The position numbers were made by a program, and so were the translations under genes. A stretch of DNA of 63,957 nucleotides from Actinomycetota bacterium (GTDB lineage Bacteria; Actinomycetota; UBA4738; HRBIN12), in contig DASUTU010000057.1 in the NCBI GenBank assembly GCA_036374435.1, positions 1 to 63,957 on the forward strand, given 5' to 3'. Shown one piece after another: positions 5,923-21,217 of the stretch. Under the pieces are notes generated by a model. The model saw only the letters and a program-made list of their open reading frames with translations, made no database searches and had not been told where the DNA came from. Numbering within the stretch: the first letter of the stretch is position 1; each line of letters starts with the position of its first letter.

Positions 5923-6702
5923 ATGGCCAGGACGCTGGCGGAGTGGTGGAACGACCGGTCCCTACGGTGGAAGGGCATCATCGTGGTCGCCTTCCCGGTG
6001 GTGGCCCTGTTGGCGGTCACCGCCGTGTTCGGCGTGGCCTCGACGGTGGCCGACCGCAGCGCGCAGGCGTACGAGGAGGGCGCGTGTCCACCGCCGTGGA
6101 CCGGCTGACGAATCACCTGTCGGCGGCGGAAGCCGGGCTGCGCGGCTACCTCCTGACCAAAGACGACCTGTTCCTCGAGCCGTATTTCCGCATCGTCGGC
6201 GGCCGCCCGCGGCCAAGGCGGACCTCGTCGCGGCGCTCGCCGAGGACACGGTGTTCACCCACCTGACCGAGGCATTCGCGACCCGAGTCGATCGGCTCGA
6301 GGACATCTCGGTGGAGATCCTGGACGCTGCCTCAAACAGGTCAGCGACGAGCTGGGACACGCCATGGGGTCGCGCCTGCTGATCGATGCGGCCGACGCCA
6401 TTCGCTCGGCGATCCGACAGTGCGACGTGCCGGCCCGAGTGGGCGGCGACGAGTTCGCCGTCCTGCTGGTGGGCGGACGGACCGCCGCCGAGAACGTCGT
6501 CGGGCGGTTGAACGATGTGATCGCCCGAACCAACTCGGCGTCGTGCGGCCCCTACACGCTTTCGCTGTCCGTCGGGACCGCCGTGTCCTCGCACGGGGAC
6601 CGACACTCTCTCTCGCGACTGCTGAGCGAGGCCGACGACGAGATGTACGCGAACAAGCGTGCTCGTCGCTCCGACCGATCCGGCTCCTCGCCCGGGCGTT
6701 AA
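5923..6702 (+). pseudogene. Degraded CHASE3-sensor diguanylate cyclase (frameshifts plus internal deletion)
   Basis: Pieces lie in different frames: TM (IIVVAFPVVALLAVTAVFG), CHASE3-like EAGLRGYLLTKDDLFLEPY, then a partial GGDEF domain LKQVSDELGHAMGSRLL...ARVGGDEFAVLL...LSVG...ADDEMYANK. Confidence 0.8.
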
Positions 6703-7112
6703 CGGACGACGAGCACCGGGATGTGCGCCAGGTGGACCACCTTGTGCGCCACGCTGCCCACGAGGAGCCGGCTCCAGTCTGAGAGGCCGCGGGTGCCGAG
6801 CACGATGAGGTCCATCCCCTCGTCCGTCGCGGCGTCGAGGATCGCTCGCGGGGTCTGGCCGAGCGGTACGCGAACGATCTCTCCGCGCACGCCCACCCCG
6901 AGGTCCTTCAGCTCACGAACGACCCCGTCCACGAGATCCAACGCCTCCCGGGGAGTCTCGGCGTCCACGTCCACGCCGAGCGCCGCCTCGTGCTCGCGGA
7001 CGTGGAACACGAGGACCTCGCCACCGTGGCGGAACGCGAGCTCCGCCGCCACGGGGACGGCCCTTCGGCTGTGCTCGGAGCCGTCGACGGCGAGGAGGAT
7101 CCGCTCGAACAT
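6699..7112 (-). CDS. Universal stress protein (single USP domain)
   Basis: MFERILLAVDGSEHS; DLIVLGTRGLS...LLVGSVAHKVVH motif. Confidence 0.92.
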   Translation of the reverse strand: MFERILLAVDGSEHSRRAVPVAAELAFRHGGEVLVFHVREHEAALGVDVDAETPREALDLVDGVVRELKDLGVGVRGEIVRVPLGQTPRAILDAATDEGMDLIVLGTRGLSDWSRLLVGSVAHKVVHLAHIPVLVVR

Positions 7113-7236
7113 CGTGACCACCTCTCTCCGACGAGCATGACCCCGGCCGTCGCCGACGGGCGAGGGCCGTCCGGGCCTTCCCGACCGGGCCGACCGCCAC
7201 CGGGTGGAGGAGGTGACCCACTAGGATGAGGAGCAC

Positions 7237-19500: not shown

Positions 19501-20183
19501 GGTGGGCCTACGACATCGGGTTCGGCGGCCTGGACCACGTCCTGGCGACCGGCCGGAACGTCAACATCCTGGTCCTGGACACGCAGGTCTACTCGAACAC
19601 CGGCGGCCAGGCCTCGAAGGCCACCCCGCGCGGCGCCGTGGCGAAGTTCGCTGCGGCCGGGAAACCGATCGGCCGGAAGGACCTCGGCATGATCGCCGCC
19701 GCGTACGGCAACGTGTACGTCGCGCAGATCGCGCTCGGAGCCGACAACGCCCAGACCGTCAAGGCGATCGCCGAGGCCGAGGCGTGGGACGGACCGTCGC
19801 TGATCATCGCCTACTCGACCTGCATCGAACACGGCATCGACATGGCCACCTCGATGACCCACCAAGCCGACGCCGTCAAGAGCGGGTTCTGGCCCCTGTG
19901 GAGGTACGACCCGCGCCTGGCCGTGGAGGGGCAGCGGCCGATGCAGCTCGACAGCAAGGCCCCGACCCTGCCACTGGCCGACTTCCAGGCCAAGGAGGCG
20001 CGGTTCGCCATGTTGGCCCGGTCGCGCCCGGCCACCCACGCGCGGCTCCAGGAGCTCGCGCAGGCGGACGCCCACGAGCGGCGGCGTCTGTACGAGCAGC
20101 TCGCCGGCATCGAACGGCAGGTGCCCGGCCAGGCCGAAGGGAACGGGCATCGAGCTGCCGAGCCGAAGGAGGTGGAGGGATGA
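16563..20183 (+). CDS. nifJ: Pyruvate:ferredoxin (flavodoxin) oxidoreductase, single-subunit
   Basis: YPITPSS, MQSEAGAAG, CIDCAKCALVCP and CTGCGVCVDVCP ferredoxin motifs, GACAGCGE, ANATGCSSIYGG, GGDGWAYDIG TPP motif. Confidence 0.96.
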   Translation: MDTNGTLITVDGNEAAARVAHRLSEVIAIYPITPSSPMGEHADALSAAGRTNLWGAVPQVIEMQSEAGAAGALHGALQAGALCTTFTASQGLLLMIPNMYKIAGELTPAVIHVAARTLATHALSIFGDHSDVMAVRQTGWAMLASSDVQAAQDLAAVSHAATLETRVPFLHFFDGFRTSHEVNVVTELDDAVLRELVDEQLIRAHRERALSPDRPVLRGSAQNPDVFFQAREASNPFHAIVPQVVQWTMDRFAELTGRAYHLFDYRGAPDAERVVVLMGSGNGAVEETVDALVDGDEPVGVVNVRLYRPFSTESFLAALPETVRSIAVLDRTKEPGSIGEPLYQDVVTALSESVAAGARPSMPRVIGGRYGLSSKEFNPAMAKAVFDELVEEDPKTHFTVGIVDDVSHTSLEVDRSFTTEADDVVRAVFYGLGADGTVGANKNSVKIIGEGTDLYAQGYFVYDSKKSGAMTTSHLRFGPHPIRSSYLIGSGQANFVACHQFNFLERTDVLDVAAPGATFLLNSPFGADAVWRHLPVETQRTVLDKGLRFYVVDAQKVATEVGLGSRVNTILQTCFFALAGVLEQKEAVARIKTAIEKSYGKRGRSVVEQNYAAVDAALGGLQEVSVPDEVSGDLRRLPPVPEEAPDFVQRVTAKMIAGQGDLLPVSALPVDGTFPTDTTQWEKRSIAREIPVWDPSICIDCAKCALVCPHAAIRMKVFEPEALEGAPAGFKHKEWRDRERPGMWMTIQVAPDDCTGCGVCVDVCPAKSKEVVKHKSIDMLPKDEHLEAEREQFAFFSTIPPLDRREVKVASIKGSQMLEPLFQYSGACAGCGETPYLKVLSQMFGDRILVANATGCSSIYGGNLPTTPWSKDENGRGPAWSNSLFEDNAEFGLGMRLSLDHQVAFARSLVERLAPSVGEELARAILDAPQRDETELADQRSRVAELKVILGGREDAEARNLLAVADALVHKSVWIVGGDGWAYDIGFGGLDHVLATGRNVNILVLDTQVYSNTGGQASKATPRGAVAKFAAAGKPIGRKDLGMIAAAYGNVYVAQIALGADNAQTVKAIAEAEAWDGPSLIIAYSTCIEHGIDMATSMTHQADAVKSGFWPLWRYDPRLAVEGQRPMQLDSKAPTLPLADFQAKEARFAMLARSRPATHARLQELAQADAHERRRLYEQLAGIERQVPGQAEGNGHRAAEPKEVEG

Positions 20184-21217
20184 CCGCGAACCTGCGGACC
20201 AGGTACCTGGGGCTCGAGCTGTCCAACCCCGTCGTGCCGTCGGCATCGACCCTGTCCTCCCGCATCGACAACCTGAAGCGCCTGGAGGCGGCCGGGGCGT
20301 CGGCGGTCGTCATGCAGTCCTTGTTCGAGGAGCAGATCGAGCACGAGGAGATCCAGATCCATCGGATGCTCGAGACCGGCGTGGACAGCTTCCCCGAGGC
20401 GTTGACGCACGTCCCAGACCTCGGCGATTACAACACGGGCCCGGACGAGTACCTGCGGCATCTCGAGGCCTGCAAGAAGGAGCTGACCATCCCCGTGATC
20501 GGCTCGCTGAACGGCTCCAGCGAGGGCGGCTGGCTCCGGTACGCGAGGATGATCCAGGAGGCCGGCGCGGACGCGCTCGAGCTGAACGTGTACGTGATCG
20601 CCGCCGACCCCGGGGTGAGCGGCTCGGAGATCGAGCGGCGGTACGTCGACCTGGTCTCGGCGGTCCGCCAAACCGTCACGATCCCGCTCGCCGTGAAGAT
20701 CGGACCGTACTTCTCCTCGGTCGGCAACGTGGCCCGTCAGCTCGTCGACGCCGGGGCCGACGGACTCGTGTTGTTCAACCGGTTCCTTCAGCCGGACATC
20801 GACCTCGAGTCACTCGAGGTCGATCCCGCGTTGCACCTGTCGACGTCGGAGGAGGTCCGACTCCCGTTGCGGTGGATCGCCATCTTGTTCGGGCGGGTGA
20901 ACTGCTCGCTCGCCGCGACCACCGGCGTGCACACGTGGGAGGACGCGGTCAAGCTCCTGCTGGCCGGCGCGGACGTGACGATGATGGCATCCGCTCTGTT
21001 CCGGCACGGCCCCGAACACCTTCAGACCGTCCTGACCGGCCTGCGGACCTGGTTGGACGAGTACGGCTACGAGTCGGTCGAGCAGCTCAAGGGCAGCGTC
21101 AGCCAGATGAACGTGGCCGACCCTTCCGCGTTCGCGCGAGCGAACTACATGGAGATGCTGGTCAACTACTCGAGCCCGTACGACTGGCGCGAGATCCCGG
21201 GTAGCGTGCAGGCGTAG
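20180..21217 (+). CDS. Dihydroorotate dehydrogenase-like FMN protein (PFOR-associated)
   Basis: YLGLELSNP, SLFEEQI, PVIGSLNG, ALELNVY, LVLFNRF, ATTGVH; ATGA overlap with nifJ. Confidence 0.88.
   Translation: MTANLRTRYLGLELSNPVVPSASTLSSRIDNLKRLEAAGASAVVMQSLFEEQIEHEEIQIHRMLETGVDSFPEALTHVPDLGDYNTGPDEYLRHLEACKKELTIPVIGSLNGSSEGGWLRYARMIQEAGADALELNVYVIAADPGVSGSEIERRYVDLVSAVRQTVTIPLAVKIGPYFSSVGNVARQLVDAGADGLVLFNRFLQPDIDLESLEVDPALHLSTSEEVRLPLRWIAILFGRVNCSLAATTGVHTWEDAVKLLLAGADVTMMASALFRHGPEHLQTVLTGLRTWLDEYGYESVEQLKGSVSQMNVADPSAFARANYMEMLVNYSSPYDWREIPGSVQA

Follow-up and report, generated by a model that had tools for sequence, protein, structure and literature searches.

DosR-type regulons serve as the model of oxygen-free survival in obligate aerobes, and recent reports describe soil aerobes that ferment to H2 and acetate under hypoxia. 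In Mycobacterium smegmatis, fermentative H2 production (Hyh/Hyd3) is controlled by DosR (bioRxiv 10.1101/2023.09.11.557286; 10.64898/2026.10.24.761498), and in Streptomyces coelicolor a binding site of the related regulator OsdR, AGGGCCGATCGGCCCT, has been validated by electrophoretic mobility shift assay (EMSA) (PMC5069765). Here we analyse a gene cluster around a DevS-like sensor kinase and a DevR-like response regulator on contig DASUTU010000057.1, which belongs to a metagenome-assembled genome (MAG; 2.8 Mb, 71% G+C, 172 contigs) of an uncultured, respiratory soil lineage of Actinomycetota. The window is this whole contig of 63,957 bp. We read the region, with somewhat better than even confidence, as the core of a DevS/DevR (DosS/DosR-, OsdK/OsdR-type) low-oxygen/NO regulon that includes a fermentative module. 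Literature searches for DosR together with pyruvate:ferredoxin oxidoreductase (PFOR), the enzyme at the centre of that module, and for DosR in Acidimicrobiia turned up no earlier description.

Because the high G+C content yields many spurious open reading frames (ORFs), genes were called by third-position GC (GC3), and protein identities were assigned via Pfam and NCBIfam. The island consists of the following genes:

6699-7121 (-): USP1, a single-domain universal stress protein (USP; PF00582, E=5e-31) with orthologs in the islands of relatives.
7237-9957 (+): 906-aa fusion of a GNAT domain with an ADP-forming acyl-CoA synthetase (ACD) module, GNAT-ACD or 'type II Pat', assigned from its Pfam domains.
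9970-10815 (-): tandem USP with two USP domains (PF00582 in 2 stretches, E=1.6e-46), its start placed by GC3.
10812-11555 (-): CBS-CBS-BON protein (PF00571 twice, PF04972).
11702-13303 (+): DevS/DosT-like kinase with Pfam domains GAF-A, GAF-B, HisKA_3 and HATPase_c.
13310-14728 (-): multicopper oxidase (MCO), a probable lipoprotein (PF13473, PF07732, PF07731).
14760-15173 (-): hyp137, a Cys-rich stand-alone receiver by its fold match to CheY/Spo0F, blank in Pfam.
15284-15754 (+): hyp156, of SRPBCC/Bet v 1 fold by its fold match, with a weak match to PF10604.
15771-16451 (+): DevR/DosR-like response regulator of the NarL/GerE type, whose best match in the PDB is DevR of Mycobacterium tuberculosis (3c3w).
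16518-20183 (+): nifJ-type PFOR (TIGR02176, 1759.4 bits against a cut-off of 911.35).
20180-21217 (+): dihydroorotate dehydrogenase (DHODH)-like flavoprotein (NF005741, 466.5 bits against a cut-off of 303).

An earlier note on this DNA had proposed a DevRS-type hypoxia island here, and every gene that it named is present where it had been placed. Its two USPs are indeed two genes, yet they amount to three USP domains, one single and one tandem pair, and two conserved ORFs, hyp137 and hyp156, were absent from its list. The start of the tandem USP gene overlaps the CBS-BON stop. The devR gene is separated from devS and forms part of a co-directional hyp156-devR-nifJ-DHODH-like array in which the DHODH-like start overlaps the nifJ stop by 4 nt. 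The TIGR02176 match spans model positions 1-1166 of 1167 and begins at residue 22 of the called protein; the true PFOR start is probably the ATG at 16563, behind GGGGTGAG.

On comparison, the sensor and the regulator keep key residues of their characterised relatives. The GAF-A domain of the kinase matches those of DosT (2vzw, 6.5e-43) and DevS (2w3d, 6e-38), and alignment to 2vzw/2y8h shows that the proximal heme His is kept (NHPPM for HHPPM/YHPPM; H149 of DevS), as is the distal Tyr (Y171 of DevS) in LYLT, 22 residues past the proximal His. Tandem GAF domains followed by HisKA_3 and HATPase_c complete the DevS/DosT architecture. The regulator, which matches M. tuberculosis DevR with E=1.9e-54, joins a REC domain to a GerE/LuxR helix-turn-helix; its D63 corresponds to the phospho-acceptor D54, and its recognition helix, EKTVKNYVS, is identical to that of M. 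tuberculosis DevR and includes the DNA-contacting K179, K182 and N183. Judged by these heme-pocket and DNA-reading residues, the two are true DevS/DosT and DevR/DosR relatives, and the identities given in the earlier note stand. By homology to the characterised M. tuberculosis proteins, DevS would sense O2, NO or CO through its GAF-A heme and then phosphorylate DevR.

We searched 40 related genomes for the island, and all co-occurrence counts refer to 41 genomes including this one. The full order, Pat / USP / CBS-BON / DevS / (MCO) / hyp137 / hyp156 / DevR / PFOR / DHODH-like, is repeated in G002, G003, G009, G010, G021 and G024, and three independent public contigs (from bacterium HR12, JBAIGN010000010.1 and a JGI soil metagenome) contain the island too. 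Its recurrence in at least six relatives and on these three contigs shows that the clustering exceeds chance. Among named PFOR loci the nearest belong to Acidimicrobiia MAGs (66-69% identity), and homologs carry the label Actinomycetota. PFOR orthologs are found in 16 genomes and DevR orthologs, 80-97% identical, in 25 of the 41: both occur in 14 genomes, PFOR without DevR in 2 (incomplete MAGs, 88-89% complete), DevR without PFOR in 11 and neither in 14 (Fisher p=0.006, Fisher p-values being optimistic here as the relatives are phylogenetically non-independent).

The linkage of nifJ and the MCO to devRS, which the earlier note had expected to see in relatives, was recovered in this survey, with direct nifJ-devR adjacency confined to one sub-clade. 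Given this restriction and the 11 DevR-containing relatives that lack PFOR, PFOR is accessory to the DevR locus. In relatives whose PFOR is missing or unlinked, devR lies close to the aconitase gene acn (directly adjacent in G019 and G022), which places the PFOR/DHODH-like cassette at the devR-acn junction only in the sub-clade of the window. The cassette is unlinked to devR in G013, G018, G019, G022, G023, G027 and G036; in G027 and in G036, which represents another family, PFOR is re-associated with devS, USP and CBS-BON genes in a different order. Around 80 more distant PFOR loci from many phyla (L047-L126) we found no devRS-type island within 10 kb of PFOR, with weak NarL-type matches at L074 and L101 and weak GAF-kinase matches at L077 and L101 (25-39% identity). 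The devRS-PFOR linkage is therefore clade-specific.

Two further observations were made in the relatives. In G006, a genome of the same genus, a PFOR pseudogene (L017/L045, contig C1 10717-14293; 41% identity, frame changes, 7 in-frame TGA codons) lies ~7 kb from an intact hyp156-devR pair, which shows the island in the course of losing PFOR. A gene for protoglobin (PF11563), a further heme protein that binds gas, is absent from the window but located downstream of the DHODH-like gene in two loci, directly after it in L146 (16773-17369) and after a cluster of ATP-binding cassette transporter genes in L145 (20062-20477).

The evidence that ties these genes to one regulator comes from predicted operators. 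The consensus of the OsdR/DosR-type palindrome is AGGGCCGwwCGGCCCT, 16 bp in length. Simple patterns performed poorly: the M. tuberculosis-style pattern GGGWCNNNNGWCCC with 1 mismatch gave 14 matches in comparison with 37 expected and is not enriched, and GGGNCGWWCGNCCC has 18 matches genome-wide, 10 of them intergenic and mostly by unrelated genes (clpP, MMPL, an OmpR-type regulator). We therefore adopted a palindromic position weight matrix (PWM) trained only on the hyp156 upstream regions of 23 loci, and judged its scores against an empirical background, the sequences upstream of 2,676 genes in the same genome. Within the window it yields two strong and two weak candidate boxes:

15233-15248: strong candidate, GGGGTCGTTCGGCCCT, in the hyp137/hyp156 divergent promoter (PWM 18.6, best in the window).
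16476-16491: strong candidate, GGGGCCGAACGACCCC, between devR and nifJ (PWM 16.5, p=0.0015, second-best in the window).
7163-7178: weak candidate, AGGGCCGTCCGGGCCT, in the USP1/Pat divergent promoter (PWM 9.5, empirical p=0.036).
11601-11616: weak candidate, ACGGCCGGACGTCCCG, in the CBS-BON/devS divergent region (PWM 8.2, p=0.064).

The boxes at 15233 and 16476 are the best two 16-mers of the whole 64-kb window and match the OsdR site at 13/16 and 12/16 positions; the 15-mer GGGGTCGTTCGGCCC at 15233 recurs as its reverse complement at 16477, within the second box. In 21 of the 23 loci the top-scoring site precedes the hyp156 ATG by 34-37 nt, and the centre of the 15233 box is at -43.5 from that ATG. 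The DosR box of M. tuberculosis hspX is likewise centred at -43.5, counted from the transcription start (PMC13486717), and by this analogy the equal distance implies a leaderless, autoregulated hyp156-devR transcript.

Applied to genes that it was not trained on, the matrix finds sites upstream of PFOR that reach p<0.01 at 8 loci and p<0.05 at a further 3, and the 8 PFOR loci in which devR is not adjacent give a combined p of 9e-7. Orthologous boxes precede PFOR in G007, G003, G009 and G002 and in the unlinked loci of G018, G023 and G036; none of the control upstream regions (acn, DHODH-like, internal devR, tandem USP) reaches significance. The positions of the two weak boxes of the window are conserved in relatives and often stronger there: in G002 and G003 a similar box precedes the USP1 start by 41-44 nt, and relatives have a box 29-34 nt before the start of CBS-BON, with p=0.006-0.05 in most of their CBS-BON/devS regions. 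Elsewhere in this genome (G000) the matrix also picks three genes:

Contig C117, 3873-4491: Flavodoxin_5 (HemG-like) gene with a box.
Contig C123, 10549-11112: MauE/DoxX gene with a box.
Contig C105, 921-1450: CoA_binding_2 gene with a box.

In relatives the orthologs of all three are found within DevR islands or next to PFOR, which checks the boxes independently, and S. coelicolor OsdR also targets a HemG-like flavodoxin gene (PMC5069765). Together the predicted DevR boxes would join the island genes and a hydrogenase operon, described below, into one low-oxygen programme.

Two structures near these boxes were seen only in relatives. A conserved gene of ~190 aa without Pfam match, missing from the window, stands between devR and nifJ in L032, L034, L040, L042, L143 and L145; it has a box upstream, and its product ends in ...AWRNAGYIGLDRW..P..GTPWEPG. 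In L046 (positions 1-190; G007, contig C75) three tandem units of ~63 nt (gagcgcgatcagcgcgagcgtagccccccgagggcagcagggggttcggggggctcaagaagc) lie directly upstream of the nifJ box at the end of the contig, and these repeats may have caused the assembly break.

PFOR would oxidise pyruvate to acetyl-CoA and reduce ferredoxin or flavodoxin, and the translationally coupled DHODH-like flavoprotein would be its dedicated electron outlet. The latter is distinct from dihydroorotate dehydrogenase proper, as every true PyrD model scores under its cut-off. Its gene lies directly 3' of PFOR in 13/13 loci of relatives with downstream sequence available, and a gene of the same NF005741 type directly follows nifJ in 57 of the 80 distant loci, from Acidobacteriota, Chloroflexota, Cyanobacteria, Verrucomicrobiota, Proteobacteria and others. 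Because the pairing extends to so many phyla, the DHODH-like protein is a general, near-universal PFOR partner and not specific to the island, which speaks against its listing as a feature of the dormancy regulon in the earlier note. A DHODH-like gene flanking PFOR has already been remarked on in Propionibacterium (PMC7650540).

The reductant produced by PFOR may find a further outlet in H2. The genome has two genuine [NiFe]-hydrogenases, which makes a fermentation-capable extension of the regulon, as put forward earlier, plausible, although DosR-controlled fermentation as such is known from M. smegmatis. The first is a group-3b-like operon (contig C166, 7188-11255) whose best solved relative is the sulfhydrogenase of Pyrococcus furiosus; this hydrogenase occurs in 12 of 16 genomes with PFOR and 0 of 25 without (p=2e-7), has, in most genomes, a box at a fixed distance of ~70 nt ahead of its first gene (10 of 11 loci with p between 0.0004 and 0.056) and in G036 is located 7 kb from PFOR. 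It would dispose of reductant as H2. The second operon (contig C51, 28072-35494) starts with HdrC/HdrB/HdrA-like genes (Mvh/Hdr or bifurcating type), is found in 4 of the 41 genomes (this one, G003, G007 and G021), all with PFOR; 67 nt upstream of it lies a weak box (p=0.012). AceE-type pyruvate dehydrogenase (PDH) E1 is absent from the genome, but several E1alpha genes and 2-oxoacid dehydrogenase complexes of the E1alpha/beta type are present, and with these E1-type enzymes the shift from PDH to PFOR suggested in the earlier note is possible.

The two ORFs added here are possible modulators of the DevS-DevR phosphorelay. For hyp137 there is no Pfam or NCBIfam match, and its family of at least 424 members includes some named CheY-like. 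Its AlphaFold2 model matches Spo0F, CheY4 and DrrD in Foldseek with probability 1.0 and template modelling (TM) scores of 0.58-0.68; on this model hyp137 is a receiver of CheY/Spo0F fold with a Cys-rich insert, and divergent since the fold matches where Pfam does not. The family keeps C37, C47, C55, H116 and D67 invariant (alignment A2), and in or near the insert (CPGPTEPDYTCxxxRxxxCP ... RHP) the three Cys and the His among them form a set that suggests a metal or redox site on the receiver domain. The hyp156 protein directly precedes devR in 23/23 devR loci of relatives examined. It has a sub-threshold match to PF10604 (E=0.019), and none of its more than 1500 homologs has a recorded Pfam match; its AlphaFold2 model (pLDDT 76) matches ZhuI cyclase, Bet v 1 and START proteins in Foldseek with probability 1.0 and TM ~0.5, by which it is an SRPBCC/Bet v 1-fold (helix-grip) protein.

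In the GNAT-ACD fusion an N-terminal Pat-type GNAT domain is followed by CoA_binding, Succ_CoA_lig and ATP-grasp_5 (Pfam), the type II Pat order, and the earlier note assigned it acetylation control of acyl-CoA flux. It is conceivable, with a minority of the probability in our estimate, that the protein is only a regulatory lysine acetyltransferase like S. lividans PatA, forming no ATP, with the ACD-like domain as an acyl-CoA-sensing scaffold and DevR (at K193, the K182 equivalent), USPs or AMP-forming acyl-CoA synthetases as targets. The GNAT part does match the GNAT of S. lividans PatA (4nxy) and the Pat of M. tuberculosis and M. smegmatis (4oll, 4ava), two USP genes flank the fusion gene, and there are precedents in Rv0998, which acetylates K182 of M. 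tuberculosis DosR and damps the regulon (PMC5861037), and in M. smegmatis PatA (MsPatA), which acetylates a USP (PMC6640162). The ACD model TIGR02717 scores 522.6 bits, near but under its cut-off of 567.15, and the phospho-His motif is missing from the G018 ortholog and its SHTG core from an Acidimicrobiaceae homolog. Yet the fusion has the full ADP-forming alpha-beta module, which scores 438 bits against true ADP-forming ligases and 338 bits against enteric Pat, with the true ligases 8wzu, 2csu and 4xyl as its closest solved relatives. Its phospho-His motif, AASHTGAL (with His447 in SHTG), aligns with the SHTG of 2csu, 4xyl, 8wzu and 9y43, is invariant in 12 of 13 island orthologs and has been lost from enteric Pat (9isq), and plain ACD genes flank PFOR in 4 loci of distant phyla. 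With this catalytic machinery kept, ATP-yielding acetate formation appears at least as likely as acetylation control: GNAT-ACD would convert acetyl-CoA to acetate and ATP, and its GNAT domain may also acetylate DevR, USPs or both. For the MCO, it had been suggested that the enzyme lowers O2 at the cell surface and so shields the O2-sensitive PFOR. All four copper motifs are present (HLH271, HSH314, HPMHLH396, HCH449), O2 reduction to water is thus expected, and the gene shares a boxed divergent promoter and adjoins hyp156-devR in 11 loci of relatives, including PFOR-less genomes and another family. However, it lies next to devR in the PFOR-less G015, G016, G020 and G038 and is missing from the PFOR-containing islands of G021 and G024. 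The MCO-devR link is thus broader than that of nifJ and devR, and because the MCO does not track PFOR, O2 scavenging finds no support. An extracytoplasmic laccase-type enzyme also needs stoichiometric reductant and makes a poor O2 sink, and the known mycobacterial lipoprotein MCO, MmcO, acts in copper/iron oxidation; we regard the shielding role as improbable. As a conjecture, this O2-reducing oxidase would most likely oxidise Cu(I)/Fe(II) at the membrane surface and protect Fe-S enzymes. Its layout comprises a signal peptide, an extra N-terminal type-1 cupredoxin (site C139x4Hx4M), a Gly/Ala linker and a two-cupredoxin core, with MCOs and laccases (6vow, 6vox, 2zwn, 3g5w) as best PDB matches. 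The N-terminus, MTTRVPGAALAVALLALTVLAAAC-GGG, has a lipobox-like AAAC read by eye, and the strict pattern L[AS][AG]C gave no match. NirK was considered as an identity and rejected, as TIGR02376 scores 86.5 bits against 296.3 and the protein has the trinuclear-cluster motifs that NirK lacks.

A broader objection concerns co-regulation itself. The island could be a conserved neighbourhood in which the nifJ/DHODH-like cassette landed between devR and acn in one sub-clade, with PFOR expression that does not depend on DevR and may take place in oxic conditions, as has been reported for cyanobacterial PFOR, and with the palindromes as terminators or as sites of another regulator. The ancestral arrangement, devR next to acn, fits this explanation, as do the PFOR loci of relatives unlinked to devR, the 80 distant loci free of a devRS-type island and the position of the 16476 box just past the devR stop, where a terminator may stand. 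Several points weigh against the regulon that we favour. GC-rich palindromes are common in this genome, where the loose pattern GGGNCNNNNGNCCC matches at 64 intergenic sites, many of them terminator-like, and some high-scoring sites lie by non-dormancy genes (an OmpR-type regulator, DUF2269, clpP). The USP1/Pat and CBS-BON/devS boxes of the window are weak (p=0.04-0.06), and directly upstream of PFOR no significant box was found in G013, G021, G022, G024 and G027, in some of which the upstream gene carries the box instead. The confinement of the nifJ-devR junction to one sub-clade, the PFOR-less DevR genomes, the non-independence of the relatives, and the ACD score and motif losses given above belong on the same side, as does the presence of an O2-requiring MCO in a hypoxia regulon. 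Group-3b hydrogenases, moreover, use NAD(P)H, and the scheme would call for a link from ferredoxin to NAD(P). On the other hand, neutral neighbourhood does not account for the boxes that persist at unlinked PFOR loci and are lacking from control promoters, for the agreement of the box with an EMSA-validated consensus, for the tracking of DevR by PFOR across genomes, or for the renewed association of PFOR with devS, USP and CBS-BON in G036 and G027. We consider the absence of co-regulation unlikely.

Under the favoured DevS/DevR regulon, phosphorylated DevR would bind the 16-bp palindromes, one of which would drive the leaderless hyp156-devR(-nifJ-DHODH-like) transcript. Other DevR sites would serve nifJ, the divergent hyp137-MCO promoter, CBS-BON/tandem-USP, USP1 and the group-3b [NiFe]-hydrogenase operon, while hyp137 and hyp156 would modulate the phosphorelay. 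The output would be a hypoxia survival programme, with the USPs and CBS-BON as its usual dormancy accessories. A more ambitious proposal, which we hold only tentatively and as a whole, is that a lineage of uncultured, respiratory Actinomycetota from soil and hot springs carries a complete, self-contained fermentative ATP module (PFOR, a live GNAT-ACD and the group-3b hydrogenase) under one heme-based O2/NO sensor, with three features new to DosR systems: the DHODH-like protein would be the missing general electron outlet of PFOR, the SRPBCC protein and the Cys3His receiver would feed a second signal (lipid, or redox/metal) into the DevS-DevR relay, and the GNAT half would tie acetyl-CoA supply to DevR acetylation.

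The locus gives a testable genetic wiring for hypoxic fermentation in an abundant uncultured actinobacterial lineage. Its predicted operators are defined 16-bp sites, its operon is predicted to be leaderless and autoregulated, and PFOR and the hydrogenase are gained and lost as a pair; the locus also draws attention to unstudied parts: a PFOR-coupled DHODH-like flavoprotein, a competent-looking GNAT-ACD and two accessory proteins of the DevS-DevR relay.

The surroundings of the island are unremarkable for mobility. Upstream are cell-wall polysaccharide genes (LCP/rhamnose) and a degraded GGDEF gene, downstream follow acn, a thioesterase gene and SbcCD, and composition including G+C is flat along the window; with unrelated housekeeping genes on its flanks, this is a stable chromosomal region and not a mobile island. 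A repeat search across the island found repeats at chance level only, and an Rfam scan of it returned no RNA family. Three features lie outside it:

5900-6702 (+): degraded diguanylate-cyclase gene with a C-terminal GGDEF fragment (PF00990, RVGGDEF), the upstream N-terminal membrane-sensor-like frame being interrupted by stops or frameshifts.
25470-31906 (-): co-directional genes for SbcC (859 aa), SbcD, a 563-aa protein without Pfam match and a NurA-domain protein; the last two may form a HerA/NurA-like end-resection pair by SbcCD.
45632-45696 (+): c-di-GMP-I riboswitch (RF01051, 41 bits against a gathering score of 35), preceding small ORFs and two glycosyltransferase genes (46405-48479), which looks like c-di-GMP-controlled polysaccharide synthesis.

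Among described systems, DosS/DosT-DosR (DevRST) of M. tuberculosis resembles the locus in its regulatory core. Shared are the GAF-A kinase with proximal His and distal Tyr, the identical DNA-reading residues of DevR, the palindromic GGGnC...GnCCC box centred near -43.5, autoregulation (here predicted) and the USP and CBS-domain (Rv2626c-like) members. In contrast to M. tuberculosis, devR here follows an SRPBCC gene rather than a USP gene and stands apart from devS, the island includes a Cys-rich stand-alone receiver and linked genes for PFOR, the DHODH-like protein, GNAT-ACD and the MCO, and hspX, nitroreductase, tgs1 and narK2 were not seen in this island. The OsdK/OsdR island of S. coelicolor (SCO0167-SCO0219; PMC5069765) shares the high-GC box, a regulator surrounded on the chromosome by USP and pyruvate-metabolism genes, and the HemG-like flavodoxin target; it has pyruvate phosphate dikinase, alcohol dehydrogenases and nitrate reductase but not PFOR, ACD or MCO, and its regulator and kinase share one operon, unlike here.

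The individual enzymes have their own counterparts. S. lividans PatA and Rv0998 have the same Pat-type GNAT ahead of an NDP-forming acyl-CoA synthetase module, and mycobacteria offer precedents in which DosR and a USP are acetylated; here the catalytic His motif of the ACD is kept and conserved, there is no cAMP domain and the gene is embedded in a DevRS island. The two-domain MCOs (mgLAC 2zwn, Nitrosomonas 3g5w) and MmcO share the full set of type-1 and trinuclear copper motifs and, if the reading by eye is right here, a lipoprotein-type export signal, whereas the present enzyme has one more type-1 cupredoxin, N-terminal and joined by a Gly/Ala linker, and is linked to devR rather than tied to a copper regulon. 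The PFOR and ACD acetate pathway of archaea and anaerobic protists runs, as predicted here, from pyruvate through acetyl-CoA to acetate and ATP, and Propionibacterium likewise has its DHODH-like gene directly beside nifJ (PMC7650540). Unlike in these organisms, the host here is a respiratory actinobacterium with a two-component hypoxia sensor, and no glutamate-synthase-like partner gene is present. A functional parallel is M. smegmatis, an aerobe whose DosR regulon responds to hypoxia by inducing a group-3b [NiFe]-hydrogenase together with substrate-level phosphorylation that forms acetate. In contrast to M. smegmatis, PFOR and an ADP-forming acetyl-CoA synthetase fusion are predicted here to replace PDH and Pta-Ack, and the hydrogenase is found only in relatives that have PFOR. 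The theme is thus known and the arrangement new, in parallel with the DosR-driven H2/acetate fermentation of M. smegmatis and the recent data from soil.

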